64,000 nucleotides of DNA, taken from the IMG/VR virus record IMGVR_UViG_3300012348_000136, positions 1-64,000 of that record. One strand, written 5' to 3'. Position numbers and translations under genes: made by a program. Shown here in pieces: positions 38,805-63,466 of the stretch. Source of the stretch: a virus (taxonomy: Duplodnaviria > Heunggongvirae > Uroviricota > Caudoviricetes). The notes beneath the pieces were generated by a model. The model saw nothing but the letters and a program-made list of their open reading frames with translations, had not been told where the DNA came from and did no database searches. Each line of letters opens with the position of its first letter. Position 1 is the first letter of the stretch.

Positions 38805-39626
38805 ATGGCTGCATCAGAAGGAGTAGATTTAGAATGGGCGATTGTTGACTATGTAAATACTCAGATGTCAAACAAAATAGTATCGTCTGGTAAAACATAT
38901 TCTAAGAAGATAGAAGACCAAGCAAAAAAATGCACTGAGCATATTATTAAGTATGCAGCTGGCAAGCGCGTTGAAGCGTGGCATTCAGACGATTCAACAA
39001 ATCCATTTGGGATTGCGATTTACGCGAAACCGGAACCTAAAACCGATATTATACTTAAGATCGGCTCAAAGGTTTATTCTACATCGGTTAAAATGGCTGG
39101 AGGCGTACAATTAGCATCAGGCCAGGGTTCGTCAACAGCGGACTTATTTGAGGCAGCATCAAAGTCATTAAGCAATTCAAAAAAGAAAACAGTATTAAGT
39201 TCTATCATAAAAGAATTAAGAGTTCTTCCTACTAGATTATTATCACAATCAAATCTCAATAGGATTTTAACTGAAGGATCAGATTCAACAATTAAGGAAT
39301 TTGTATCACGTGGAAAAATCATAAGTGATAAAAGCTATGACTTGTGGTTGAAAAATAATAAGCCAAAATTAATGAGTGATTTGCTGAGTTATATCCAAAA
39401 GGATAAGGAATTCACTGAAGCTCTACTATATGAAAGTATGACTGGTGAGCAAACGTTAAAGTCATATAGAGGAGCGGTTGCGGATTCAATTATTAGTCCT
39501 AAAGGATTCTATGTCATAGATTCAAAATATGTGTCTTCTATCATGAATAAGATTAAATTTGACATCCGCGGTAAGTCAAGAAGTGGAATTACTGGACTAG
39601 CATTCAGAATAGATTTAAAAGCATGA
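38805..39626 (+). CDS. hypothetical protein (273 aa)
   Basis: Track ORF. Confidence 0.45.
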   Translation: MAASEGVDLEWAIVDYVNTQMSNKIVSSGKTYSKKIEDQAKKCTEHIIKYAAGKRVEAWHSDDSTNPFGIAIYAKPEPKTDIILKIGSKVYSTSVKMAGGVQLASGQGSSTADLFEAASKSLSNSKKKTVLSSIIKELRVLPTRLLSQSNLNRILTEGSDSTIKEFVSRGKIISDKSYDLWLKNNKPKLMSDLLSYIQKDKEFTEALLYESMTGEQTLKSYRGAVADSIISPKGFYVIDSKYVSSIMNKIKFDIRGKSRSGITGLAFRIDLKA

Positions 39627-40924
39627 AATCATTTAGAAGTTTTTTAACTGAAGGAGCAAACCTTGCACCAGCCGAACTTTATAAGTACGATTGGCGTCTT
39701 GAGCTGTTTATCGACAAACTTAAAAGTGGGCTACCATTAGCTCTTGTAAAAGGCGGAGAGATTTCGCTGCACTATGACGCGGACGCTGAAAGTCGTTTAC
39801 GCGCTAAGCAAGACCCAGGTAAGATTTCTTTTCGAGGTTATGACAATTCCGTCTATTACCTAAAGGACTTTGCAAAGTCAAAGGAATTTGGAGGAGGCGG
39901 TGGTTCTGGTGCAGGTGCCGACGTTACACAGCTAACCGAAAGCGCGCAGGCAGTTTATGCTGCAGCTAAATGGGCTGGCGCTAAGACATATAATACTGCT
40001 GAATTAACTCAAGGATATTCTCACTCTGAAGTTGATGATGATCTTAATCGTATCTTAAATGACTTGCCAAAAGAATGGCGTGAGTCATGCATTCTTGGTG
40101 CTGAGGAATTATACAAACTACTTCATGGAAAAGCTTACACATTCCATCGTGGTAGTGCATGGGTAGATAAACTTGAAAAGCACTTCAAGACTCTTAATTC
40201 TAAAGAGAAGGCTTTCTCAAACTTAAATAAGTGGAGTCCAGCTGATATTTACTTAGTGTCTCCTGTTGGTAAAAATATTCACTTTGAGAATGCACAAAGT
40301 ATTGCTGAATTAAACAGCATGCTAACTGAAGCATTAAAGAACAAAGATGTAGTTGGCGTGTCATTGAAGCTACTTAAAAAGAATGCTCATATTTCATACT
40401 ACAACTTTGATACCAAGAAAAAGATTGTTGAATTTGATCACTTCACAACTGGTAACAAAGGATTCTTTAGCGGTAAGGACGTCTATATGTACTTTACGTT
40501 AGACGGTAAGATTCAGTTCCGTACATTTCCCGAAACATTCCAAGGCGAAATTAAAGGTAAGAATGCTAACCAAGGGAAGTTAAGTTATGGACCAATTCAA
40601 ACGATTCTTCGCCAACTAAAGCTACCTCAGCTGATTGACGTTAAGAAACTGCGTAGCGGATTGCAAAAGAGCGACCCAACCTTGCTTAAGGAGTTTTATT
40701 CAAACTATACACGTTACTCAAAGGACACCGTAAAGGTTTCATATGACGAGTTTGTTGACAGGATAAAAGATCAGGGCGTTTCTTGGTCCTTTAGTAAATT
40801 CCTTGGAGTTGAACTTATTGACATAATCTCAAAAAGCTCGCAAGAAGACGAGTTTATTACAGCATGCATCAGCTATGCAAGTAGCAGCAGCGATCTTAGC
40901 GCACCATTTATCAAATTAGAATAA
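39623..40924 (+). CDS. putative internal head protein (capsid-targeting-sequence-like N-terminus)
   Basis: N-terminus MKSFRSFLTEG resembles the T4 internal-protein targeting peptide MKTYQEFIAEA. Confidence 0.45.
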   Translation: MKSFRSFLTEGANLAPAELYKYDWRLELFIDKLKSGLPLALVKGGEISLHYDADAESRLRAKQDPGKISFRGYDNSVYYLKDFAKSKEFGGGGGSGAGADVTQLTESAQAVYAAAKWAGAKTYNTAELTQGYSHSEVDDDLNRILNDLPKEWRESCILGAEELYKLLHGKAYTFHRGSAWVDKLEKHFKTLNSKEKAFSNLNKWSPADIYLVSPVGKNIHFENAQSIAELNSMLTEALKNKDVVGVSLKLLKKNAHISYYNFDTKKKIVEFDHFTTGNKGFFSGKDVYMYFTLDGKIQFRTFPETFQGEIKGKNANQGKLSYGPIQTILRQLKLPQLIDVKKLRSGLQKSDPTLLKEFYSNYTRYSKDTVKVSYDEFVDRIKDQGVSWSFSKFLGVELIDIISKSSQEDEFITACISYASSSSDLSAPFIKLE

Positions 40925-40927
40925 CAC

Positions 40928-42166
40928 ATGAAATCATTTAAAGACTACATCGCTGAGGCTTCGGCTGAAGGCAAAAATTTACACATGACTCATATCGAGG
41001 ATGCTGTTATTTACGGCGGCATTAAAGGAGCACGTGATGCAATTCTTGCGTTGCGAAGCTTACGCGATATGCTCGCGGGTAATGCTAAATCAGCCACAGA
41101 CGTTACAGTAAAATGGGATGGTGCACCGGCAGTATTTGCTGGTATTGATCCATCGGACGGACAGTTCTTTGTTGCTAAGAAAGGTATCTTCAACAAGAAT
41201 CCAAAGATCTATAAGAGCGTGTCAGACGTTCGTGCTGATACGTCTGGAGACCTTGCTGATAAACTGTCCATTGCTTTTAATGAATTACAAAAGCTTGGAA
41301 TTAAAGGAGTGCTACAAGGTGACATTATGTTCACCCAAAAGGATCTTAGTGTTGAAGACTATGATGGAGAAAAGTACATCACGTTTCAGCCCAACACAAT
41401 TGTTTATGCAGTTCAAGCTAATAGCGAAATTGCAAAGACTATCAAGAAAGCTAAAATTGGCGTAGTATTCCATACACGATACACCGGAGCTACTCTTGAA
41501 AGTATGAAAGCTTCTTATGACTTTGATCAAAGCGAACTTAAAAAGACTTCGTCAGTTTGGTTCCAAGACGCAAAAGTTCATGACCTTTCAGGTAAGGCTA
41601 CCTTTACAGCTGAAGAGACCGCTGAGCTAACCGCAAGACTGTCAGTTGCAGGTAAGATATTTCAAAAGATCAACGGTTCTACACTCAAGGAAATTGAAGA
41701 CAATCCTGACTTTGCACAAAGCCTTGAAACATTCAATAACACATATGTACGTCGCGGTGAAACCGTAAAGGATACAAAAGCACATGTTGATAACTTAATC
41801 AAATGGGCAACAGATCGCTTCAATAAAGACATCGAGTCTAAGAAGTCAGCAAAAGGTAAGGAAGCTGCATCGGCAAAACGCGACGACTATATGAAGTTCT
41901 TTTCGGATGAAAACAAAAAGAACCTCAACTTGGTTTATCAGCTACAAAATGCAATTATTGATGCAAAGATGTTAATTATAAATAAACTCGATACTCTTAA
42001 AAAGTTAAGTACTTTTATTAGAACTAAGAACGGATTTAGAGTTACAAGTCAAGAAGGTTTTGTTGCAATTGATCATTTATCAGGTGGCGCAGTAAAATTG
42101 GTTGACCGCATGAATTTCTCTTATTCAAATTTTAGTCCTGACGTAATTAAAGGATGGGATCGCTAA
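40928..42166 (+). CDS. putative internal head protein (capsid-targeting-sequence-like N-terminus)
   Basis: N-terminus MKSFKDYIAEA; also carries a KWDG motif reminiscent of nucleotidyltransferase motif I. Confidence 0.45.
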   Translation: MKSFKDYIAEASAEGKNLHMTHIEDAVIYGGIKGARDAILALRSLRDMLAGNAKSATDVTVKWDGAPAVFAGIDPSDGQFFVAKKGIFNKNPKIYKSVSDVRADTSGDLADKLSIAFNELQKLGIKGVLQGDIMFTQKDLSVEDYDGEKYITFQPNTIVYAVQANSEIAKTIKKAKIGVVFHTRYTGATLESMKASYDFDQSELKKTSSVWFQDAKVHDLSGKATFTAEETAELTARLSVAGKIFQKINGSTLKEIEDNPDFAQSLETFNNTYVRRGETVKDTKAHVDNLIKWATDRFNKDIESKKSAKGKEAASAKRDDYMKFFSDENKKNLNLVYQLQNAIIDAKMLIINKLDTLKKLSTFIRTKNGFRVTSQEGFVAIDHLSGGAVKLVDRMNFSYSNFSPDVIKGWDR

Positions 42167-42167
42167 T

Positions 42168-43166
42168 ATGAAACAATCAGATACACCTGCAAGTAAAGAA
42201 CCTAAGAAGATTCGATTAAAGGATCTTATCGCTGTTGACTACACTGACGACTCATGGCCTGAGGACGAAGAAGGACAGTTAGCATACGATTATTGGAAGC
42301 GCGCGTCTGGAGTTCTTGATGAGGAAGAAATTGAAGAAGGCATTGATTGGTTTAAGCTTGTCTATGGTGACAGCAAATTAGCTATTGCTAAGAAGATTAA
42401 AGCTACCCCATCTAAGACTTTAGAAACTCTAGCTAAATCAAATCCAAATGCAGCTGGTGCTCAAAAATTTCAGCATGAGTTTGCCGTAAAAGAACTTGAA
42501 TATCGCAAGAAGATTAATGATCATTCTGACGGTAACCCAAAATATAAGAAAGAATATGGGAATGGATATAGTCATTTAGAAGATTCACTCGAAGAATCTC
42601 ACGATTCTCAAATCTCTAAGTATGAACTAAATGGCGAGCTTAAGCGTGTAAATGATCGTATTAAGTTCCTACGTGCGGCTCATCATGGTTCCTCTTTACC
42701 TAAGGACGTTTCATCTGAGCTAAAGCGACTTGAAGATCAACGTGATAGTATTCTTTCAATGCTTAAGGAAGAAGATATCCTTGAAGATGTTGACTCTGAG
42801 ACTATCACAGAGGCACTTAATATGTTGCAGCGCATGAAGCGCCGCGCGATTATGCGTAGAAACAAATCAAAGATTCTTGCAGGCCGTCGTCGCGCGCAAC
42901 GCCGCCGCGCATCCACCTCAGTTCTTCAGCAACGTGCAGTGCGCGCGGCTCGTGCTGCTCTTGCTCGCCGCTTGTTACATAAAAATAAAGGTGAAGCTAG
43001 CTATGGTGAAAAGGTTCGAGTTGAAAGAATGCTTGCTGCTCGCCAAGGGGCAATTAAGAACATTGCTCGCCGTCTTCTTTCAAAGGTTCGTCAAAAGGAA
43101 CGTATGCGTTTCCAAAAGCATGCTACCCCTCCAAAGCCAATCCAATCCATTAAGCCAAATAAGTAA
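42168..43166 (+). CDS. hypothetical protein with a strongly basic C-terminus
   Basis: Arg-rich tail RRRAQRRRAST... Confidence 0.45.
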   Translation: MKQSDTPASKEPKKIRLKDLIAVDYTDDSWPEDEEGQLAYDYWKRASGVLDEEEIEEGIDWFKLVYGDSKLAIAKKIKATPSKTLETLAKSNPNAAGAQKFQHEFAVKELEYRKKINDHSDGNPKYKKEYGNGYSHLEDSLEESHDSQISKYELNGELKRVNDRIKFLRAAHHGSSLPKDVSSELKRLEDQRDSILSMLKEEDILEDVDSETITEALNMLQRMKRRAIMRRNKSKILAGRRRAQRRRASTSVLQQRAVRAARAALARRLLHKNKGEASYGEKVRVERMLAARQGAIKNIARRLLSKVRQKERMRFQKHATPPKPIQSIKPNK

Positions 43167-44401
43167 TGGGACTCAAATCATTCCGTACCTACACCGAAGA
43201 ATCAACTAAGGAATTAGTTGCGACATTCGGCCGCTTTAATCCGCCGACAATTGGTCATGAAAAATTGATTAATGCGGTTGCAAAAGAAGGCAAAGGTAAA
43301 ACATATCGCATTTACGCATCGCAAAGCGAGGATTCAAAAAAGAACCCGCTATCTTACGATGATAAGATTAAATTTATGCGTAAGATGTTTCCACAGTATG
43401 GTCGCAATATCATACTGGATCGCGCAATCAAAAATGTGTTTAACGTAGCGTCAGCTGCACATGACGATGGCTACACAAAATTCACGTTGGTTGTAGGGAG
43501 CGATCGTGTTCCAGAATTTAAGTCTTTGCTTGCAAAGTATGATGGTGTTAAAGGTACACATGGGTACTATAAATTCCGTGATGGTATTCAAGTTGTATCT
43601 GCGGGCGAACGCGATCCTGATGCAGACGATGTAAGTGGTATGAGTGCATCAAAGATGCGTGCTGCGGCGGCTGATAACGATCTTGATACTTTTGCAAAAG
43701 GACTGCCTAAAACATTTGGTGAAGTCAAGGAGTTGTTTAATGCTGTGCGAAAAGGAATGGGTCTAAAAGAAAGCCATAACTTCCGTAAGCATGTTCAGTT
43801 TGAGCCACTAAGCAATATTCGTGAACGCTATATTGCTGGAGAAATTTTCAATGTTGGCGATGAAGTTTATGCTGAATCTGAGAGTGACATGATCCTTACT
43901 GTTGAATCACGCGGACCAAACCATGTCACGTGTAAACTACCAAATGGAGAAACCAAACGCTTCTTTATAACCGATCTGCATATAGTTGAAGGCTCTTCAT
44001 ACTATACGGGCCTGTCAAAATCAACCGCTGATAAACGCGAAAAGCATTTTGACAAGAACGCTAAGAAGGATGACGATGATGACAGTGCATACGCGCCTGC
44101 ACCAGGCGATAAGACCGCTGTCACTAAACCTTCAAAATACACAAAAGAATATCAAAGGAGATTTGATGAAGGCGCTAGCCCAGTGTCTAAAGCACTGCGT
44201 AAAAAGTCAGAAGATTCTGGTATTGACTATGGTATACTTAAAGACGTATATGACCGTGGACATGCTGCATGGAGAACTGGCCATCGTCCTGGAACAACGC
44301 CTGAGCAGTGGGGATTGGCTAGAGTAAACAGTTTTATAGTTGGAGGAACAACCCGCAAGACCACAGACTCCGACTTATGGAAAAAGCATAAAGGTAAATA
44401 A
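43166..44401 (+). CDS. cytidylyltransferase-like nucleotidyltransferase, NMNAT candidate, with capsid-targeting-like N-terminus
   Basis: N-terminus MGLKSFRTYTEES, then GRFNPPTIGHEKL (HxGH motif) and SGMSASKMR (ISSTxxR-like); unknown C-terminal half. Confidence 0.5.
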   Translation: MGLKSFRTYTEESTKELVATFGRFNPPTIGHEKLINAVAKEGKGKTYRIYASQSEDSKKNPLSYDDKIKFMRKMFPQYGRNIILDRAIKNVFNVASAAHDDGYTKFTLVVGSDRVPEFKSLLAKYDGVKGTHGYYKFRDGIQVVSAGERDPDADDVSGMSASKMRAAAADNDLDTFAKGLPKTFGEVKELFNAVRKGMGLKESHNFRKHVQFEPLSNIRERYIAGEIFNVGDEVYAESESDMILTVESRGPNHVTCKLPNGETKRFFITDLHIVEGSSYYTGLSKSTADKREKHFDKNAKKDDDDDSAYAPAPGDKTAVTKPSKYTKEYQRRFDEGASPVSKALRKKSEDSGIDYGILKDVYDRGHAAWRTGHRPGTTPEQWGLARVNSFIVGGTTRKTTDSDLWKKHKGK

Positions 44402-44409
44402 ATAAACAT

Positions 44410-45648
44410 ATGAAGAAACTTTCACAAATTGAATCAGAAGCCATTGCGATATATGAAAATATGGAAATGGCACTCGGAGGTAACTCAAATGAAATTGTCC
44501 CTCCAATCACACCAGCGACGGTTGACCGTGTTGGTTCTGCGCTAGAGAAGTTAGATCAAATTGGCGAAATGGCAAATGATCTATACAATACAATTTCTCA
44601 TCTTGAAGAAATTGATGCAGAGACTGATGCTGCTCTAACAGGTGCATACAATTCTATTGACGACCTATACACGAAGATTGATGACAAGTATGACGTCATT
44701 CCAGTTGAACTCGATGAATATGACATTGAGGAAGAACTTGAACTTTCAGCCGACATTGAAATCATTGCTGAAAAGCTATCAGCTGATGCAGATGCATCTG
44801 AATGGATCGATGATTTTGTCAATAGCGATGCTCCACAGTTTAAAGGTAAGTCCAAGAAGGAACGTATCAAGATGGCTCTAGGCGCATACTATGGTGCACA
44901 AAAGAACGAAGAAGTTGATCTTGAAGAAGCAGCTGCATCTGACACTAAATGGCGAGTAGCATTCTCATATGCTGATCCATCTGGATCTGGTGTTGCTAAT
45001 GCTAGAATCGTTATTAAAGCAAACGATTCCGAAACTGCAAAACGATATGCAGAAACAAGTCTTAAAAGAAAAGGCAATTACAAAGATTTCAAAATTAAGT
45101 CTGCTTCGAAGATGAATGAAGAAGTTGAGCTTGAAGAAGCGCTGTTACCAAGTCACAATTGGAGTCCTGGTCATGATATGGTACCTGCGCCAATTGGTAA
45201 AGATACTATAACTGCAAAAGGAACGACCAAAGACATTCAAAAACTTTGGGGTATCAAAATGCGCGCAGGAAAGTGGGCTGATACCTTCGTTGGCATGTAT
45301 AAAGATGGAACGCTTGGAATTTTTAACAATGATGGCGAATGGAAATATAAAAATGTAGCCGATTTTGAAAAAGCCTTTGCTAAATTCCGTAAGACAGGCG
45401 ATCTTGACGAGAATGTTGACCTTGAAGAAAGTGTTAACCTTCCAAAAATCAAAGAGCTTGTATCACTTGCTCTAATTGATGAAAAAGATGTACCTGCTAC
45501 AATTGCTGCATTAAAAGCAACTCAATCTGATAAGACATTAACTCCAGCGCAAACCAAACTACTTGGTAACCTTGCTGTTATGTTGACCAACGTTATCCTT
45601 GGAGATACAAGTGCATTGTCCAGCGTTAAGCGCGCATCTAAGGAATAA
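44410..45648 (+). CDS. acidic repeat protein, possibly a processed internal-protein precursor
   Basis: Repeated EEVDLEEA, EEVELEEA and ENVDLEES (LxE-type sites). Confidence 0.45.
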   Translation: MKKLSQIESEAIAIYENMEMALGGNSNEIVPPITPATVDRVGSALEKLDQIGEMANDLYNTISHLEEIDAETDAALTGAYNSIDDLYTKIDDKYDVIPVELDEYDIEEELELSADIEIIAEKLSADADASEWIDDFVNSDAPQFKGKSKKERIKMALGAYYGAQKNEEVDLEEAAASDTKWRVAFSYADPSGSGVANARIVIKANDSETAKRYAETSLKRKGNYKDFKIKSASKMNEEVELEEALLPSHNWSPGHDMVPAPIGKDTITAKGTTKDIQKLWGIKMRAGKWADTFVGMYKDGTLGIFNNDGEWKYKNVADFEKAFAKFRKTGDLDENVDLEESVNLPKIKELVSLALIDEKDVPATIAALKATQSDKTLTPAQTKLLGNLAVMLTNVILGDTSALSSVKRASKE

Positions 45649-45838
45649 CTCTAATCCACCTTTGCCTAACCTAAGGATTATTTTATGATCCCTTCGGGAA
45701 CCTTCGGTCAATCTAGTTTCTTCTGGATTGGCCGTTTGTTTATATGCAGCCATCAAACGGTTGCTGCGGAATGAATACTTAATTATTATAACATGGTCTG
45801 CGAGAATGTAAATAACAAAATTCACAATATATACAATT

Positions 45839-46618
45839 ATGGACTTTAATGGAAGAAAAGATTTAGTAAAGAGAGTGCAATCTGCTCTGGGATTACAAGT
45901 GGATGGAGATGATGGCTTTAAAACATGGTCAGCTATTGTCGAAAAGATTTGCCCTCTTGAAACTGAAGCACCAAAACCAGTTCAACCTGAACCATCAGTT
46001 GGATTATCACCTCGCGCTTTAAAACTAATCATCGACTATGAAGTTGGTGGAGGTGAAGGTTACTACAATGCTGCATTAAAGCGTCCATGTTATCCAGGCG
46101 GTCAAAGCGGAGTTACAATTGGCATCGGCTACGATTTAGGATACAATACCGTAGCACAATTTCAATCTGATTGGGGATTCCATCTTAGCGGCGGCGACTA
46201 CAATCGACTCGTTCAACATGTCGGCAAAAAAGGATCGTCTGCTAGCGCTGCAATATCTTCTGTTAGGGATATTCAAATATCTTGGGAAGATGCGCTTGCG
46301 GTATTTAAACAGAGTACTTTACCACGCTTTATTAAAGAAACTCTTCGAGTGTTTCCAGGCGCAGACAAGTTACATCCAGACGCATTTGGCGCACTTGTCT
46401 CGTTGGTATTTAACCGCGGTGGATCGCTCAGCGGAAGCAGCCGAATTGAGATGCTAAATATTTCAAAAGCAATTAAAGGCGAAATTCAAACTCCAAACAT
46501 TTACGGCTATATCGCCGACCAAATTATCGCGATGAAGCGTCTATGGGTTGGTAAAGGACTAGATGGTTTGTTACGTCGCCGCAATGAAGAAGCCGATGTA
46601 ATTCGCAAATGTAACTAA
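45839..46618 (+). CDS. endolysin: peptidoglycan-binding domain plus lysozyme-like catalytic domain
   Basis: VKRVQSALGLQVDGDDGFKTWSAI (PG_binding-like), then GIGYDLGYNT ... ALVSLVFNRG ... GLLRRRNEEADV. Confidence 0.55.
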   Translation: MDFNGRKDLVKRVQSALGLQVDGDDGFKTWSAIVEKICPLETEAPKPVQPEPSVGLSPRALKLIIDYEVGGGEGYYNAALKRPCYPGGQSGVTIGIGYDLGYNTVAQFQSDWGFHLSGGDYNRLVQHVGKKGSSASAAISSVRDIQISWEDALAVFKQSTLPRFIKETLRVFPGADKLHPDAFGALVSLVFNRGGSLSGSSRIEMLNISKAIKGEIQTPNIYGYIADQIIAMKRLWVGKGLDGLLRRRNEEADVIRKCN

Positions 46619-46626
46619 ACGAAAAT

Positions 46627-47895
46627 ATGCCTACCCAATACCTATCAGGACCAAAAACATTAACGCGCGAGCATGCGCGATATGAAGTCCATATGTTAGC
46701 TGACCAACTAACACCTGGCGGATCTATAACCGATGCCTTTGGACGACTACGAACAAGTTCTCCTTTCACTATATTTGACAGCCAGTATCGTTATGGCGAT
46801 AATGGCAAGTGGGATACGTTAACAGCAACAAACGGATCTGCTACACATGTCTCGGCTGAAAACGTAATGTCATTAACTGTCACTAACGAATCAGGTAGCA
46901 AGGTTGTTCGTGAAACACGTCGAGTGATGCCGTATCAGCCAGGAAAAAGTCTACTGATTCTTGCAAGCTTTTGTCTAGGTACTCTTAAAACAAATCTTAG
47001 ACAGCGTGTTGGTTATTTTGGCGACAATGATGGGATATTCCTTGAAGCCAATGGCGAAGATGTATCTCTAAAGATACGCAGCCGCAGTCTCAACACAACA
47101 CTGTCAGCTCCTCGGGCTGAATGGAACGGCGATAAATTTGACGGGACTGGATATAGCGGTCGCACCATTGATTTTTCCAAGTCTCAAATATTTTGGATGG
47201 ACATTGAATGGCTAGGCGTTGGCGATGTTCGTTGTGGCTTTATTGTTGATGGACATTTAATTGTAGCACACACGTTCCATAATGACAACATCCGAACCAC
47301 AACGTATATGTCAACTGCATGCTTGCCTATACGTTATGAAATTGAAAACCTTGCAGCTACTTCAGGCTCAACAACGCTAAAGCAAATTTGCTCTACTGTA
47401 ATTTCCGAAGGAGGTTATGAACAAATCACCAAGCAATGGTCAGCCACTCGAACATCTGCTATAGCAAGCGTCGATGTCGCAACTGGATGGGCTCCTGTTG
47501 TATCACTTCGTCTCAAAAGTGGATACACCGATGCTATAGTTTTACCATCTCAAATCCATATTATCGGGAGCGGTAACTCTAGCACATATGAATATGCATG
47601 TATTCGTAATGCGACTATAACAAACGGTAATTGGACTACGCACACTGGCAGCGGTGGTGTATTGGAATATAACATAGGAGCAACTTCAATGAGTGGAGGC
47701 ACCGTTGAAGACAGCGGAATATTTGCTAGTAGCAACCAATCAAATGCTCTCATCAATGCTTACCTACCAAGCACATTTGAACAGCAACTTGGAAGAACTA
47801 TAGGAGGGACCGCTGATACATATACATTAGCAGTGCGACACTTAGGCACTGGCGGAAACGTCTATGGAACTCTAAACTGGAACAGCATACTCTAA
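46627..47895 (+). CDS. hypothetical Gly/Ser/Thr-rich beta-type protein (422 aa)
   Basis: Track ORF; composition resembles fibre or decoration proteins. Confidence 0.4.
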   Translation: MPTQYLSGPKTLTREHARYEVHMLADQLTPGGSITDAFGRLRTSSPFTIFDSQYRYGDNGKWDTLTATNGSATHVSAENVMSLTVTNESGSKVVRETRRVMPYQPGKSLLILASFCLGTLKTNLRQRVGYFGDNDGIFLEANGEDVSLKIRSRSLNTTLSAPRAEWNGDKFDGTGYSGRTIDFSKSQIFWMDIEWLGVGDVRCGFIVDGHLIVAHTFHNDNIRTTTYMSTACLPIRYEIENLAATSGSTTLKQICSTVISEGGYEQITKQWSATRTSAIASVDVATGWAPVVSLRLKSGYTDAIVLPSQIHIIGSGNSSTYEYACIRNATITNGNWTTHTGSGGVLEYNIGATSMSGGTVEDSGIFASSNQSNALINAYLPSTFEQQLGRTIGGTADTYTLAVRHLGTGGNVYGTLNWNSIL

Positions 47896-60665: not shown

Positions 60666-60740
60666 CCTCCAGTAGCTCAGTGGTAGAGCGGGTTCTTTAT
60701 AAGGGCCGGGTCGTTGGATCGTTCCCAACCTGGAGGACCA
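60666..60740 (+). tRNA. tRNA, anticodon UAU (Ile-like), CCA encoded
   Basis: Hand-folded cloverleaf; anticodon stem has two G-U pairs; T-loop ATCGTTC. Confidence 0.5.
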
Positions 60741-60743
60741 TAA

Positions 60744-60818
60744 CCGCCTGTAGCTCAGAGGCAGAGCGCGCGCCCGATAAGTGCGAGGTCGTGATATCGT
60801 AATTCACCAGGCGGACCA
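60744..60818 (+). tRNA. tRNA-Ile (GAU)
   Basis: Hand-folded; anticodon loop CCGATAA; CCA encoded. Confidence 0.6.
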
Positions 60819-60827
60819 TTTCATAAC

Positions 60828-60902
60828 GCGGGATTCGTATATCGGTTAATATGTGAGTTTTCCAAACTTGAGAGAAGGGTTCGATTCCCTTATCCCGTAC
60901 CA
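60828..60902 (+). tRNA. tRNA-Gly (UCC)
   Basis: Hand-folded; loop TTTCCAA; canonical T-arm AAGGGTTCGATTCCCTT; CCA encoded. Confidence 0.55.
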
Positions 60903-60911
60903 CTTTAAATT

Positions 60912-60988
60912 GGGGGCAAAGCATTGCTGATTGATGCACTAGGCTCTTACCCTTGAGAACTCGGTTTGATTCCAGAGTGCCCTAACCA
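60912..60988 (+). tRNA. tRNA-Lys (CUU)-like with a bulged T-stem
   Basis: Anticodon loop CTCTTAC; T-stem CTCGG/CC(A)GAG with one bulge; 1-72 mismatch; CCA encoded. May be a pseudogene. Confidence 0.35.
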
Positions 60989-61000
60989 ATTTCAAAATAA

Positions 61001-61099
61001 CGTCGCGTGTCCGAGTTTGGTTAAAGGAGCTCGCCTTGGAAGCGAGTGCGTGCAGCAAGAGGCTGTGGGCCGTGGGTTCGAATCCCACCGCGGCGACCA
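61001..61099 (+). tRNA. unusual 99-nt tRNA: anticodon UGG (Pro-type loop CTTGGAA) with a 25-nt variable arm
   Basis: C1-G72 and A73; 3-bp D-stem of the long-variable-arm class; variable-arm hairpin GCAGC AAGAG GCTGT; canonical T-arm GTGGGTTCGAATCCCAC; CCA encoded. Confidence 0.45.
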
Positions 61100-61176
61100 A
61101 TTTTAATCGAGTGCTGAAGAATACGGTTACTTCTTCAAGCGAAACAACCACCGTGTTCGTTTGTTGCCTCGAATAT
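61100..61176 (+). ncRNA. conserved structured spacer element, copy 1
   Basis: Paralogous to 61252-61327 and 61924-62017; paired segments ATCGAG/CTCGA and ACGGT/ACCGT. Confidence 0.45.
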
Positions 61177-61251
61177 GGCGTGATGGGGGAATGGCTACTC
61201 GACGGCCTGCAAAGCTGATCCATGTCGGTTCGAGTCCGACTCACGCCTCCA
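61177..61251 (+). tRNA. tRNA-Cys (GCA)
   Basis: Loop CTGCAAA; 27-43 mismatch; T-arm GTCGGTTCGAGTCCGAC; CCA encoded. Confidence 0.5.
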
Positions 61252-61327
61252 ATTTCAAATCGAGTGTTGAATGCAACGGTTACTTCTTTTGGTGAAAACA
61301 CACCGTTGCAGTTTGTTACCTCGACAT
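61252..61327 (+). ncRNA. conserved structured spacer element, copy 2
   Basis: ATCGAG ... CCTCGA outer pairing; inner stem TGCAACGGT/ACCGTTGCA. Confidence 0.45.
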
Positions 61328-61401
61328 ACGGCGTTCGTCTAATGGTAAGACTACTCCCTCCAAAAGAGAAAACGTGGGTTCGATTCCTACACGCCGTGCC
61401 A
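61328..61401 (+). tRNA. tRNA-Trp (CCA)
   Basis: Loop CTCCAAA identical to the E. coli tRNA-Trp loop; weak anticodon stem; CCA encoded. Confidence 0.5.
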
Positions 61402-61415
61402 ATTTCATAAATAAT

Positions 61416-61490
61416 GCGCGTGTAGCTCAGAGGCAGAGCAGCTCCTTTACACGGAGAAGGCCGGGGTTTCGATATCCTCCATGCGTACCA
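61416..61490 (+). tRNA. tRNA-Val (UAC)
   Basis: TAGCTCAGAGGCAGAGC D-arm; loop TTTACAC; CCA encoded. Confidence 0.55.
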
Positions 61491-61499
61491 CTTTCAAAT

Positions 61500-61574
61500 C
61501 GCAGGGAGAGTGTTGGTTCTCCGAGGGTCTCATAAGCCGCTCTGACGTGGGTTCGATTCCCACCCCCGCATCCA
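61500..61574 (+). tRNA. tRNA-like, CAU loop (CTCATAA), initiator-like C1·A72; poor anticodon stem
   Basis: 3' end CCCCGCA-T-CCA resembles the tRNA-fMet acceptor; canonical T-arm GTGGGTTCGATTCCCAC; the body folds poorly. Confidence 0.3.
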
Positions 61575-61583
61575 CTTTTAAAT

Positions 61584-61660
61584 AGAGCCGTAGCTCAGTT
61601 GGTTAGAGCGCTTGCCTGTCAAGCAAGAGGTCGCGGATTCGAGCTCCGTCGGTTCTGCCA
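61584..61660 (+). tRNA. tRNA-Asp (GUC)
   Basis: Clean cloverleaf; loop CTGTCAA; CCA encoded. Confidence 0.65.
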
Positions 61661-61668
61661 AGTTTAAT

Positions 61669-61753
61669 GCCGCAGTGATGAAATGGTAGCACATGCCAGA
61701 CTTAGAATCTGGTGCCTCACGGCGTGTCGGTTCGAGTCCGACCTGCGGTACCA
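61669..61753 (+). tRNA. tRNA-Leu (UAG)
   Basis: Long-variable-arm type; stem CCAGA/TCTGG; loop CTTAGAA; 13-nt variable arm; A73; CCA encoded. Confidence 0.65.
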
Positions 61754-61764
61754 CTTTACATAAT

Positions 61765-61840
61765 AGATAGCAATGCACCGGGCGTGCAGGGACGCTGTTA
61801 ACGTCTGTCGAGCTAGGTTCGAGTCCTAGGCTATCTGCCA
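61765..61840 (+). tRNA. tRNA-Asn (GUU), copy 1
   Basis: Loop CTGTTAA; T-arm CTAGGTTCGAGTCCTAG; G73; CCA encoded. Confidence 0.6.
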
Positions 61841-61848
61841 TTCTTAAC

Positions 61849-61923
61849 CCACCGGTAGCTGAGATGGATTAGCGCTAGCCTGAAGAGCCTGAGAGATTGG
61901 ATCGTTACCAATCCGGTGGACCA
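61849..61923 (+). tRNA. tRNA-Phe (GAA)
   Basis: Loop CTGAAGA (the E. coli tRNA-Phe loop); acceptor CCACCGG/CCGGTGG; weak anticodon stem; CCA encoded. Confidence 0.5.
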
Positions 61924-62017
61924 TTTTATCAAGTGCTGAAGAACAGTGTTACTTCAACGCAAATGAAACAACCCCAAACCAACACTGTTCGCCTATTGCC
62001 TTGATACTTTCTTTAAC
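61924..62017 (+). ncRNA. conserved structured spacer element, copy 3
   Basis: ATCAAG ... CCTTGAT (G to A change compensated by C to T); inner stem ACAGTGTT/AACACTGT. Confidence 0.45.
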
Positions 62018-62094
62018 GGGACATTCGACAAGTGGCCTAAGTCACCGATTTCATAAGTCGGCTATCGTTGGTTCGAATCCAACATGTCCTACCA
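62018..62094 (+). tRNA. tRNA-Met or Ile2 (CAU)
   Basis: Loop TTCATAA; stem CCGAT/GTCGG; T-arm GTTGGTTCGAATCCAAC; CCA encoded. Confidence 0.55.
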
Positions 62095-62102
62095 ATTTCA
62101 AT

Positions 62103-62178
62103 AGATAGCAATGCACCAGGCGTGCAGGGACGCTGTTAACGTCTGTCGAGCTAGGTTCGAGTCCTAGGCTATCTGCCA
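62103..62178 (+). tRNA. tRNA-Asn (GUU), copy 2
   Basis: Near-identical to 61765-61840, with one D-loop difference. Confidence 0.6.
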
Positions 62179-62519
62179 TTTTAGATGACGGCGTGGAAAG
62201 CAGACACGCAGGAATATTCGACTGGACGAAACCCTAGGCGGAGATGCACCGAGATGCGATAGGTTAGTAATCTGGTTGTGACCGTAGAGAAGAGCCGTGC
62301 ATGGCGAGTAAACAGAAAGCAAACCGACTCTGAATCGAGAGGCTTGTCCTGTTGATCGGGTACACCGATTTCAAATCCGAGTAGCGACGGATTCATCTAA
62401 TAACTTTCTCGACAGATTGACTGTGGTTGGTCACTCGAAATAAGATGCGTGTAGATCGTCGATGGATCCCCGACAAAGTAAGCACGCTGGAGCTTCAGCA
62501 GGCTCCGTCTGTTGAAGAT

Positions 62520-62594
62520 TGCTCTGTAGCTCAAAGGAAGAGCGCTTGTATGACATGCAAGAGGTTTGGGTATCGTGATCCCACAGAGCAACCA
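62520..62594 (+). tRNA. tRNA-Val (GAC)
   Basis: TAGCTCAAAGGAAGAGC D-arm; loop ATGACAT; CCA encoded. Confidence 0.5.
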
Positions 62595-62691
62595 ATTTAC
62601 AAACCTAGCGTTAACTTAAAACGATACTGAGGAGGGGCTGAACTCCTGACCTCAGAGAGTGACAGCGAGAGAGAACGCACCAATTTTCAAA

Positions 62692-62774
62692 GGGCATTGC
62701 AGTGTATGTCTTGGATGCATACCGTATCGGAATAAACATACGGAGGTTGGGTTCAAATCCCACTATGTCCACCA
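62692..62774 (+). tRNA. tRNA-like element (canonical T-arm, acceptor and CCA; non-canonical body)
   Basis: TTGGGTTCAAATCCCAC then TATGTCC-A-CCA; upstream hairpin CCGTAT ... ATACGG with a 10-nt loop. Confidence 0.25.
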
Positions 62775-62784
62775 ATTTTTCAAT

Positions 62785-62861
62785 GAATGTGTAGCGCGCA
62801 GTGGTGGGCAGGACCCGCTATGAGGCGACGGAAATGTACGTTCGAATCGTATCCACATTCG
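62785..62861 (+). tRNA. tRNA-like element without encoded CCA, bulged T-stem
   Basis: Perfect acceptor GAATGTG/CACATTC; T-arm GTACGTTCGAATCGTA(T)C; anticodon arm not resolved. Confidence 0.25.
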
Positions 62862-62866
62862 CTAAC

Positions 62867-62941
62867 GCCGCATAAGCATAAAAGGTGATGCGCCGGTTTT
62901 GTACTCCGGATAACTCAGTTCGATTCTGGGATGTGGCTCCA
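62867..62941 (+). tRNA. tRNA-Thr (UGU)
   Basis: Loop TTTGTAC; D-stem GCAT/ATGC; CCA encoded. Confidence 0.55.
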
Positions 62942-62947
62942 CTTTTG

Positions 62948-62955
62948 TATAAATA
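62948..62955 (+). promoter_or_regulatory. T4-type late promoter core
   Basis: TATAAATA 4 nt upstream of the ATG at 62960. Confidence 0.4.
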
Positions 62956-62959
62956 GAGT

Positions 62960-63205
62960 ATGGAAAAAGATACTGAGACTACACTATTGGAAGCGGCTAC
63001 AGCTGCACTAACCGAAGCTCAAATTGAACCATCCGCTAAGACATTGTATGCAATGAAAGATGGTGCAATCATATTCGTCGATCGCGTTAAGGGCGACGAA
63101 GTAATGATTTTTAAAGCTTCTAATTGGAATAGTGGTGCAATCACGCTTGATATGTTTAAGTCTAAAGTTTCTGGTAAAATCGGAGAAGCCGATTTACGTA
63201 AGTAA
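62960..63205 (+). CDS. hypothetical protein (81 aa) embedded in the tRNA array
   Basis: Track ORF with a late-promoter motif upstream. Confidence 0.45.
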   Translation: MEKDTETTLLEAATAALTEAQIEPSAKTLYAMKDGAIIFVDRVKGDEVMIFKASNWNSGAITLDMFKSKVSGKIGEADLRK

Positions 63206-63212
63206 TTACATT

Positions 63213-63287
63213 GCTCCTTAAGCATAGATGGCGATGCGCTGATTTCGTACATCAGAAAGGACGGCTCAAGTCCGTCAAGGAGCTCCA
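63213..63287 (+). tRNA. tRNA-Thr (CGU)
   Basis: Clean fold; loop TTCGTAC; T-loop CTCAAGT; CCA encoded. Confidence 0.55.
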
Positions 63288-63294
63288 CTTTTAT

Positions 63295-63384
63295 GGAGCG
63301 GGCCCAGGCTGGCCGATGGAACATACCTGGAAAGTATGTGGACCCTACAAGGTCTCAGGAGTTCGAATCTCCTCTGCTCCGCCA
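63295..63384 (+). tRNA. tRNA-Ser (GGA)
   Basis: Long-variable-arm type, 90 nt; stem CATAC/GTATG; loop CTGGAAA; T-arm AGGAGTTCGAATCTCCT; G73; CCA encoded. Confidence 0.65.
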
Positions 63385-63392
63385 TTTTTAAT

Positions 63393-63466
63393 TGTTCCGT
63401 AGCGTAATGGTAGCGCAACTGACTTTGACTCAGTGTGTATGGGTTCGACTCCCGTCGGAACTACCA
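63393..63466 (+). tRNA. tRNA-Gln (UUG)
   Basis: Loop CTTTGAC; stem ACTGA/TCAGT; weak 1-72 pair as in E. coli tRNA-Gln; CCA encoded. Confidence 0.55.

Follow-up and report, generated by a model that had tools for sequence, protein, structure and literature searches.

Phage tRNA-Pro(UGG) genes with a long variable arm form a conserved family of probable proline acceptors on a class-II scaffold

In textbook accounts of bacteria, a long variable arm is confined to the transfer RNAs (tRNAs) for leucine, serine, tyrosine and selenocysteine. A 99-nucleotide (nt) gene in a tRNA array of a virus (Caudoviricetes; IMG/VR record IMGVR_UViG_3300012348_000136) joins such an arm to the proline anticodon UGG, and so raises the questions of whether it encodes a working tRNA, which amino acid that tRNA accepts and what the arm is for. 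We analyzed positions 1 to 64,000 of the record (hereafter, the window). The gene proves to represent a conserved family of phage tRNAs, and comparative evidence suggests a functional, proline-accepting elongator tRNA(UGG) on a class-II scaffold, probably derived from tRNA-Ser. We give this reading a probability of roughly 0.68.

ARAGORN places a tRNA-Pro(tgg) precisely on 61001-61099 (+) and puts the first base of its anticodon at position 37 of the gene. Rfam model RF00005 matches 61001-61096 with 51.3 bits (gathering threshold 29; E = 4e-8 over the 64-kb window), and R1, a covariance model of the family described below, gives the window tRNA 104.4 bits. The gene has the following parts.

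61001..61099, + strand: whole tRNA gene (ARAGORN, Rfam, R1), a class-II-shaped tRNA-Pro(UGG) of 99 nt including the encoded CCA.
61001..61007, + strand: 5' strand of the acceptor stem, CGTCGCG (C1), pairing with 61089-61095.
61010..61028, + strand: D arm, with U10-A25, C11-G24 and C12-G23, then an unpaired G13·A22, and an 11-nt loop.
61030..61046, + strand: anticodon arm, CTCGC-CTTGGAA-GCGAG, with the anticodon TGG at 61037-61039.
61047..61071, + strand: variable region of 25 nt, UGCGUGCAGCAAGAGGCUGUGGGCC, consisting of U44, a hairpin of 61048-61056 with 61062-61070, and C48.
61072..61088, + strand: T arm, GTGGG-TTCGAAT-CCCAC.
61089..61099, + strand: 3' strand of the acceptor stem (G72 at 61095), A73 (61096) and the encoded CCA (61097-61099).

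The acceptor stem, CGUCGCG/CGCGGCG, has seven pairs, with C1-G72 at its end and a single wobble, U3·G70. The D loop reads A14, G15, UUU, G18 and G19, and the anticodon loop CUUGGAA comprises U33, then U34, G35 and G36, then A37. The hairpin of the variable arm has 8 to 9 base pairs (bp), that is, nine stacked positions including one G·G mismatch, closed by a 5-nt loop. Energy alone favors another pairing of the D and anticodon regions of the window sequence by 2.1 kcal/mol (-40.6, versus -38.5 for the cloverleaf). The cloverleaf is the minimum-energy fold of homologues on three other IMG/VR contigs (L066, L329 and L320; L numbers denote contigs throughout), and the covariance model and comparative analysis together support it unambiguously.

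An initial annotation, made from the sequence alone, had described these parts correctly. The 7-bp acceptor stem with C1-G72 and A73 is confirmed by reading the sequence against the Rfam alignment, and the proline-type anticodon loop CTTGGAA by ARAGORN and by the covarying pairs of its stem. The 3-bp D stem is as described, with G13·A22 unpaired beyond it, and the hairpin in the 25-nt variable arm is a helix that covaries in the family. Neither ARAGORN, which placed Pro(UGG) on the exact span, nor Infernal assigned a different anticodon arm or a pseudogene. To call the gene a chimera was also fair: its acceptor end and anticodon are those of class-I tRNA-Pro, and its D arm, T arm and the flanks of its variable arm are those of tRNA-Ser or tRNA-Tyr.

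Evidence that the structure is maintained came first from a close relative. With an exonuclease gene 4 kb upstream as bait, we found a sister phage (three IMG/VR contigs, L023, L024 and L026; 86% amino-acid identity) in which a 99-nt tRNA-Pro(tgg) occupies the syntenic position, flanked by Lys-CUU and Cys-GCA. The sister tRNA differs from that of the window by G26A, and its anticodon stem has undergone two double compensatory exchanges (CUCGC/GCGAG to CUCCG/CGGAG) around an identical loop. The variable arm shows one compensatory change (U·G to A-U), one repair (G·G to G·U) and changes in the arm loop. Because the neighboring Lys-CUU and Met-CAU genes have decayed in this same comparison, selection has acted specifically on the odd tRNA.

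The wider family was collected by pattern scans of IMG/VR followed by local ARAGORN runs; the scans used exact-match patterns rather than a model scan of whole collections, and the distribution given here covers IMG/VR viral contigs. It consists of about 28 distinct sequences of 93 to 99 nt on 38 viral contigs of 4 to 260 kb. Covariation was assessed in an alignment of 15 members that is gap-free relative to the window (A2), with the cloverleaf and a nine-pair extra arm imposed. In this alignment 94.4% of the cells are paired, both partners vary in 25 of the 30 pairs, and the score for covariation reaches 0.844, compared with 0.21 for column shuffles (0 of 500 reach the observed value) and about 0.1 when the 3' partners are slid. 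All pairs of the acceptor (seven) and anticodon (five) stems covary, with 100% of the cells paired; 1-72 is C-G in 14 of the 15 sequences. The acceptor and T branch, with 7 + 5 pairs, is likewise 100% paired, each pair being either covarying or invariant. Three of the four D-stem positions covary, and 13-22 is G·A in 13/15, as in phage tRNA-Ser and tRNA-Tyr. In the extra arm, eight of nine pairs change on both sides and 91% of the cells are paired. We conclude that the long-arm tRNA-Pro is a real, conserved phage tRNA, with covariation far beyond chance.

The two halves of the extra arm behave differently. The proximal half drifts freely, whereas the distal half keeps its sequence (G·U in 13/15, then C-G, A-U and C-G). 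This suggests that something reads the distal arm, because the sequence of a helix has been kept there while the acceptor and anticodon stems diverged to saturation.

Several other structural interpretations were considered and rejected. Scans of bacterial genomes and metagenomes (CTTGGAA N{18,36} GTGGGTTCGAATCCCAC) gave 240 matches, 233 of which are ordinary tRNA-Ser(GGA), because the loop of that tRNA, C followed by UUGGAAA, holds the same heptamer one position out of register. This cross-match raised the possibility that the loop of the phage tRNA is itself to be read in the other register, with anticodon GGA; however, five stem pairs covary around CUUGGAA (the sister has CTCCG/CGGAG), and this fixes how the 7-nt loop is to be read. 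The arm occurs in every member and covaries as a helical stem, which contradicts an intron or an insertion element in the variable loop. A tRNA-Sec or allo-tRNA, which would have an 8/4, 9/3 or 8/5 branch and a long D stem closed by a tetraloop, is contradicted by the 7/5 branch and the 11-nt D loop, and the tRNA-Sec model does not score above the tRNA model. For transfer-messenger RNA (tmRNA) or a tRNA-like element there were weak partial matches only.

BLAST of the window tRNA and of 16 concatenated family members found no significant homologue in 50,697 GenBank phage records, the best matches at E up to 10 being tRNA-Ser genes of Agrobacterium phage Atu_ph07 and Ralstonia phage RsoM2USA. 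A search of viral sequences with a pattern built on the anticodon and T stems of the window tRNA gave no match. In the literature searched we found no description of a long-arm tRNA-Pro, which is weak evidence of novelty as most subscription journals lay outside the search.

Which amino acid would such a tRNA carry? The bacterial determinants of proline identity are A73, G72 (C1-G72), G35, G36, G37 and G15:C48, with U17a and G49 as minor elements (Giegé and Eriani 2023, PMC9976931). Those of serine are the variable arm and tertiary shape, conserved G1-C72 and G2-C71 (reported to be absolutely conserved in most bacterial tRNA-Ser) and G73, and those of leucine are A73 plus tertiary features that include the 15-48 pair (PMC9976931). 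We therefore compared these positions in a model-based alignment of 124 tRNAs (A3) that contains 22 members of the long-arm family, 25 class-I phage tRNA-Pro, 28 phage tRNA-Ser and 6 long tRNA-Leu.

Position 1-72: C-G in 21/22 of the family and 23/25 class-I tRNA-Pro; G-C in 27/28 tRNA-Ser; in tRNA-Leu, G-C 3, G·U 2 and C-G 1.
Position 73: A in 22/22 of the family, 25/25 class-I tRNA-Pro and 6/6 tRNA-Leu; in tRNA-Ser, G 20 and U 8.
Position 2-71: free in the family (U-A 9, G-C 8, A-U 5) and in class-I tRNA-Pro; G-C in 28/28 tRNA-Ser; C-G in 5/6 tRNA-Leu.
Position 15:48: G:C in 22/22 of the family, 22/25 class-I tRNA-Pro and 26/28 tRNA-Ser; A:U in 6/6 tRNA-Leu.

At these positions the family shows the signature of proline; the acceptor signature of serine has been lost, and the tertiary signature of leucine is absent. 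The G2-C71 pair of the window tRNA itself is not conserved in the family. The pair 49-65 is G-C in 21/22 members; G15:C48, G49 and features of the U17a type are also common in tRNA-Ser and discriminate weakly. In passing, 8 of the 28 phage tRNA-Ser carry U73 instead of the usual bacterial G73 (for example, L058 2818-2910, L339 6250-6343 and L355 1495-1586).

Because most members had come from a pattern that fixes CTTGGAA, we also scanned without fixing the anticodon. A scan for the D-loop type recovered 92 distinct class-II tRNAs, in which UGG occurs only with C1-G72/A73, and vice versa. In a scan for the variable-arm motif, all of the true variable-arm matches (10/10) were Pro(UGG), one of them with the loop UUUGGAA and one with CUUGGGA (G37, L490).

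The remainder of the molecule points toward tRNA-Ser. Most family members score 78 to 107 bits with R1 (the branch of L325 and L331 about 62 to 64), and outside the family phage tRNA-Ser score 55 to 73 and class-I tRNA-Pro about 46 to 64 bits. The highest non-family score, 72.8 bits, belongs to a tRNA-Ser(UGA) of phage Atu_ph07, which is also the best GenBank phage BLAST match. Mean identities of the family to the two comparison groups in A3 are as follows.

Acceptor stem: class-I tRNA-Pro 0.46, tRNA-Ser(UGA) 0.29.
Discriminator: class-I tRNA-Pro 1.00, tRNA-Ser(UGA) 0.00.
D arm: class-I tRNA-Pro 0.48, tRNA-Ser(UGA) 0.55.
T arm: class-I tRNA-Pro 0.74, tRNA-Ser(UGA) 0.85.
Bases framing the variable arm: class-I tRNA-Pro 0.36, tRNA-Ser(UGA) 0.63.

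The 15 nearest non-family neighbors of the window tRNA body are all tRNA-Ser or tRNA-Tyr, including one that ARAGORN leaves untyped and that its record annotates as tRNA-Ser. Since the body is closest to phage tRNA-Ser(UGA) and the anticodon loops differ by one base (CUUGGAA versus CUUGAAA), we consider it most likely, with moderate confidence, that the family arose from tRNA-Ser(UGA) by A36G and subsequent replacement of the acceptor-end determinants, that is, by a switch of identity from serine to proline. A recent recombination between co-resident proline and serine genes was rejected, as the acceptor stems of long and short tRNA-Pro in one phage are unrelated.

The favored reading, a proline-accepting elongator, can be followed from gene to codon. 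The gene would be transcribed with the rest of its same-strand array and excised by host processing enzymes; because CCA is encoded, its addition would not be needed. The product folds, as covariation shows, into the cloverleaf with the 8-9-bp extra arm. Its class-II scaffold (the long variable arm, the 3-bp D stem with G13·A22, G9 and U44) is without the acceptor-end determinants of seryl-tRNA synthetase (SerRS) and without the tertiary signature of tRNA-Leu, and the conservation patterns suggest charging by a bacterial-type prolyl-tRNA synthetase (ProRS) of the host through G35, G36, A73 and C1-G72, with G15:C48 also in place. The charged tRNA would then decode CCA and probably, through U34, further CCN codons. 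CCA is the most common proline codon in the open reading frames (ORFs) of the window (231/493, or 47%; CCU, 32%).

Several considerations weigh against this reading. G37/m1G37 contributes to keeping the reading frame in E. coli, and A37 stands in its place in the window tRNA and in 22/22 aligned members, where it is mostly imposed by the search pattern. In E. coli, G37 (m1G37) also contributes to prolylation (PMC9976931). On the other hand, A37 is found in 13/25 class-I phage tRNA-Pro, a sample partly selected for A37. The exact 18-nt anticodon arm of the window, GCUCGC-CUUGGAA-GCGAG, is shared by 22 further IMG/VR contigs (L001-L022); ARAGORN calls a class-I tRNA-Pro(UGG) there in 21 of the 22 (no tRNA is called in L010), and because these genes carry A37, the base would seem to be common in phage tRNA-Pro. 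Proline identity is also deduced from rules established mainly in E. coli. ProRS, a class II synthetase, would have to accept a 25-nt arm, and because E. coli SerRS is reported to recognize tRNA-Ser largely by its tertiary shape (PMC9976931), some serylation of the long-arm tRNA is conceivable. As to descent, an origin from tRNA-Ser is not rigorously separable from the acquisition of an arm by a class-I tRNA-Pro with later adaptation of the D arm. The fixed anticodon loop and T loop of the patterns that found most members mean that the diversity of the family is under-sampled. Finally, plain decoding does not explain why the gene is retained, because most arrays that contain it also contain ordinary tRNA-Pro(UGG) (usually one or two, often with tRNA-Ser(UGA) as well), and it leaves the sequence conservation of the distal arm unexplained.

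The extra arm is itself a target of selection, and because of this redundancy and this conservation we think that it has a role of its own. By conjecture, it would most likely serve as a handle, for recognition or for protection, in the conflict between phage and host over tRNAs. Several defense nucleases directed at tRNAs, and phage tRNAs that counter them, are documented, and some of these nucleases cut the variable loop of class-II tRNAs (PMC10264068, PMC11555353, PMC13096335, PMC13056530).

The arrays of these phages contain many other class-I isotypes with an added variable arm, 82 to 95 nt in length: Asn, Thr, Lys, Gln, Glu, Ile-UAU, Met, Val, Asp, His and Cys. Examples are as follows, and further ones occur in L381, L395, L366 and others.

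L051 4464-4550: Asn.
L051 9323-9407: Lys-CUU.
L051 11882-11968: Thr.
L336 931-1022: Glu (92 nt).
L002 12382-12468: Lys-UUU.
L061 2334-2423: Ile-UAU.
L061 9220-9305: Val.

Several of these tRNAs also have a class-II-type D arm, and their discriminators are not all the G73 or U73 of serine: A73 is present in the Lys and Glu examples, and G73 in the Asn example. These phages seem to remodel tRNAs toward class II as a general rule, and the proline tRNA is the most extreme case. A possible, if doubtful, extension is that large phages, T4-like and other tRNA-rich ones, maintain a second tRNA set made of class-I isotypes (Asn, Thr, Lys, Gln, Glu, Ile, Met, Val and others) remade on class-II scaffolds, with the arm as a dedicated handle by which a phage or host factor tells phage from host tRNAs. 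Such a handle would shield the tRNAs from nucleases, whether of defense systems or phage-induced, or would bring in an enzyme for modification or processing; the proline tRNA, with its sequence-conserved distal helix and G·U pair, would be its most extreme and best conserved bearer.

An unlikely alternative to proline acceptance is that the tRNA is mistranslating or ambiguous, attracting SerRS or leucyl-tRNA synthetase (LeuRS) and inserting serine or leucine at CCA/CCN codons, either deliberately (a statistical proteome, or host shut-off) or as a tolerated error. The serine-like body, with its variable arm in the same frame as that of phage tRNA-Ser (U44 ... C48), would suit SerRS, A73 is the key determinant for LeuRS (PMC9976931), and nematode class-II tRNAs with Gly or Ile anticodons are leucylated in vitro (PMC3333845, PMC4300185). 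However, the nearly invariant G1-C72 and G2-C71 of phage tRNA-Ser have been exchanged for C1-G72 and a free 2-71 pair, the serine G/U73 has become A73 in every aligned member, and the leucine-type A15:U48 occurs in 0/22. C1-G72 is useless to SerRS and LeuRS and a strong determinant for ProRS; since the pair serves ProRS only, its conservation across saturated acceptor stems is hard to explain as mistranslation. Moreover, constitutive replacement of proline by serine or leucine at the phage's most used proline codon would harm its own proteins. We accordingly do not favor the mischarging proposed in the initial annotation, for the serine acceptor determinants are lost, the leucine pair is absent and the bacterial ProRS set is conserved. 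Nor is the recoding it proposed favored, as the pattern of conservation is that of an ordinary proline-charged decoder on an unusual scaffold.

A tRNA that does look like a candidate Pro-to-Leu mistranslator, or a recent anticodon mutant, was encountered separately. L319 4863-4949 (-) is an 87-nt tRNA with a typical tRNA-Leu body (GCCGCCG-UG-GCGGAACUGGUAGACGC..., G1-C72, A73) and the anticodon UGG. It differs from the long-arm family and is a candidate because LeuRS does not read the anticodon.

Also rather improbable, in our judgment, is a main role outside decoding: as a decoy, sponge, protected spare or ligand of a phage protein, the tRNA would act through its extra arm and decode only incidentally. 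The drift of the other stems around a distal arm whose sequence is kept, the apparent redundancy with the normal tRNA-Pro(UGG) of most arrays, the added arms on other class-I isotypes in the same arrays and the documented contest between tRNA-cutting nucleases and escaping phage tRNAs all agree with it. A pure decoy, however, would have no need of what is conserved: the anticodon with U33 and its 7-nt loop, the CCA end and the full ProRS determinant set. No nuclease directed at tRNA-Pro is known for these hosts, and among the 30 window ORFs scanned there is no synthetase and no tRNA-binding or tRNA-modifying gene. A role of this kind is in any case compatible with ordinary decoding rather than exclusive of it, and for the same pattern of conservation we do not favor the suggestion in the initial annotation of a decoy for host anticodon nucleases.

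That the gene is instead a neutral oddity or a decaying pseudogene (a tRNA-Pro that acquired an insertion, or a defunct tRNA-Ser copy whose anticodon has mutated), as the two decayed copies elsewhere in the window array might suggest, is very improbable and effectively excluded by covariation, given a family that spans many diverged phages with compensatory substitutions in every helix (also relative to the sister phage), invariant identity positions, high model scores (51.3 bits with Rfam) and a long-arm gene that stays intact while its neighbors decay.

With the proline-accepting reading preferred, the family can be set beside known tRNAs. It resembles canonical class-I tRNA-Pro(UGG) in the anticodon, C1-G72, A73, G15:C48 and 7/5 architecture, and presumably shares its synthetase and codons. 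It differs in having a 25-nt variable region with an 8-9-bp hairpin rather than a variable loop of 4 to 5 nt, and a D stem of three pairs plus G13·A22, with G9 and U44, rather than four pairs with C13-G22, A9 and A44. With tRNA-Ser(UGA) it has in common the D arm (UG-NCCG-AG..GGUU.AA-GGN), the variable-arm frame U44 ... C48, the T arm and, save for position 36, the anticodon loop. In contrast to that tRNA (UGA, G1-C72, G/U73), the family has UGG, C1-G72 and A73; G2-C71 and C11-G24 are not conserved in it, and its variable stem is 8 to 9 bp with a conserved distal sequence of its own, compared with roughly 4 to 7 bp. Bacterial tRNA-Leu also has A73 on a class-II body, but A15:U48, the Leu-type D loop and a Leu anticodon are absent from the family.

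The nearest conceptual relatives are the nev- and nov-tRNAs (Hamashima et al., PMC3333845, PMC4300185), which are also lineage-conserved and place anticodons other than those of Leu, Ser or Tyr on a class-II body. They are nuclear genes of nematodes or other eukaryotes, and their anticodon and acceptor identity disagree because they have kept leucine identity and are leucylated in vitro (PMC3333845, PMC4300185), whereas anticodon and acceptor end agree in the phage family. Allo-tRNAs and the (8/4) tRNA-Ser/His of bacteria and phages likewise have a long arm and many anticodons, and some are in phage clusters (Mukai et al. 2016, PMC5389517), but allo-tRNAs have an 8/4 or 9/3 branch, a tRNA-Sec-like D arm and a G73 or U73 that predicts serine charging, in contrast to the 7/5 branch, A73 and C1-G72 seen here. 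An engineered yeast tRNA-Ser(UGG) combines a serine-type body with the proline anticodon (Berg et al., PMC6827378); it retains the serine determinants and puts serine at proline codons, with toxic effect, whereas the phage family has swapped the determinants. Finally, Streptomyces coelicolor has type I and type II tRNA-Leu, short- and long-arm forms of one isotype served by one synthetase (PMC6614811). That case runs in the opposite direction, with a class-II isotype that is also class I, and concerns leucine in a bacterial genome.

The phage that carries the window gene is a T4-like myovirus, as judged from its T4-type replication and nucleotide genes, cyanophage-like virion proteins and a Kyanoviridae exonuclease. 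The window has a G+C content of about 41% and encodes UvsX, RNase H, a DnaB-like helicase, thymidylate synthase and both ribonucleotide reductase subunits, in addition to NAMPT and a protein resembling phosphoribosyl pyrophosphate synthetase. Its virion proteins share about 45% identity with their counterparts in T4-like cyanophages (for example, S-RIM8 and S-RIM50). By protein, the nearest cultured relatives are two members of the Kyanoviridae, Phage C48C1 and Synechococcus phage S-CREM1, and Phage C48C1 is the closest by the neighboring exonuclease (54%). Within the 40-kb stretches examined, these two phages have solely ordinary tRNAs and no long-arm tRNA-Pro. Six more distant relatives by the exonuclease (L030, L031, L032, L036, L038 and L044; about 48% identity) have a 438-nt permuted tmRNA gene with the tag ANDEQFALAA just downstream of it, in place of the tRNA array. 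Elsewhere in the window, seven consecutive ORFs of 259 to 433 amino acids occupy 39623-47895; the two that were scanned match the virion-structural PHROG families phrog_1462 and phrog_1645, and the run may be a series of paralogous structural genes.

The array itself contains the following further features.

60666..63466, + strand: same-strand tRNA array holding the long-arm gene; ARAGORN finds 16 tRNAs, Rfam finds more, and two copies are decayed.
60912-60984: decayed tRNA-Lys(CUU); Rfam 20.6 bits, no ARAGORN call.
About 61497-61581: decayed initiator-like tRNA-Met(CAU); no tRNA call, weak matches to tmRNA and YrlA fragments.
61849-61920: tRNA missed by ARAGORN and found by Rfam (39.6 bits); matches tRNA-Phe of Streptomyces phage BRock.
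63213-63284: tRNA missed by ARAGORN and found by Rfam (48.1 bits); its loop UUUCGUA corresponds to Thr-CGU.
61107..61172 (directly 3' of the long-arm tRNA) and 61260-61324, + strand: two copies of a long hairpin, in the spacers flanking tRNA-Cys.

Gene order in the array is syntenic with that in L023 and L051. The sister phage has, in addition, a class-I tRNA-Pro(UGG) between Thr-CGU and Ser-GGA; since the window is without that copy, the long-arm gene is its sole tRNA-Pro. The decayed Lys-CUU gene aligns with an intact one in the sister (L023 9976-10051), relative to which it has mismatches in the acceptor, anticodon and T stems. The sister copy of Met-CAU (L023 10644-10717) has the C1·A72 mismatch typical of initiators, and the window copy shows additional mismatches and an altered D arm. 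Two tRNAs with the anticodon CUA, called 'Pyl' by ARAGORN, are candidate amber suppressors: L051 12400-12474, in the sister array, and L061 11864-11940, on another contig that carries the family.

The hairpin element is about 65 nt long (UCGAGUG(C/U)UGAA ... GUUUGUU(G/A)CCUCGA) and lies in the spacers 61100-61176 and 61252-61327. Its two copies have folding z-scores of -3.05 and -2.48, and the inner 9-bp stem differs between them by compensatory changes. The first copy is kept after the homologous tRNA in the sister phage (L051 3185-3253; also L023, L024, L026, L056 and L072). It has no Rfam match, and may be a processing or termination signal.

The family described here unites a proline anticodon and a proline-type acceptor end with a class-II body, and is conserved across many large phages. 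Such genes may be mis-scored or flagged as isotype conflicts in genome annotation. If these tRNAs are charged by ProRS, they would be a natural example of a completed switch of tRNA identity, probably from serine to proline and by way of mistranslating intermediates. They would also show that a class IIa synthetase tolerates a 25-nt extra arm, and would provide a ready scaffold for engineering tRNAs with an extra functional hairpin. In that case, the distal arm and the coexistence with a normal tRNA-Pro would point to an unknown partner, and could tie the family to tRNA-nuclease defense and the counter-tRNAs of phages. Should the phages prove to keep a parallel set of tRNAs, ProRS and the synthetases of other class-I isotypes would be shown to accept class-II tRNAs, and a new layer would be added to the conflict between phage and host over the tRNA pool.

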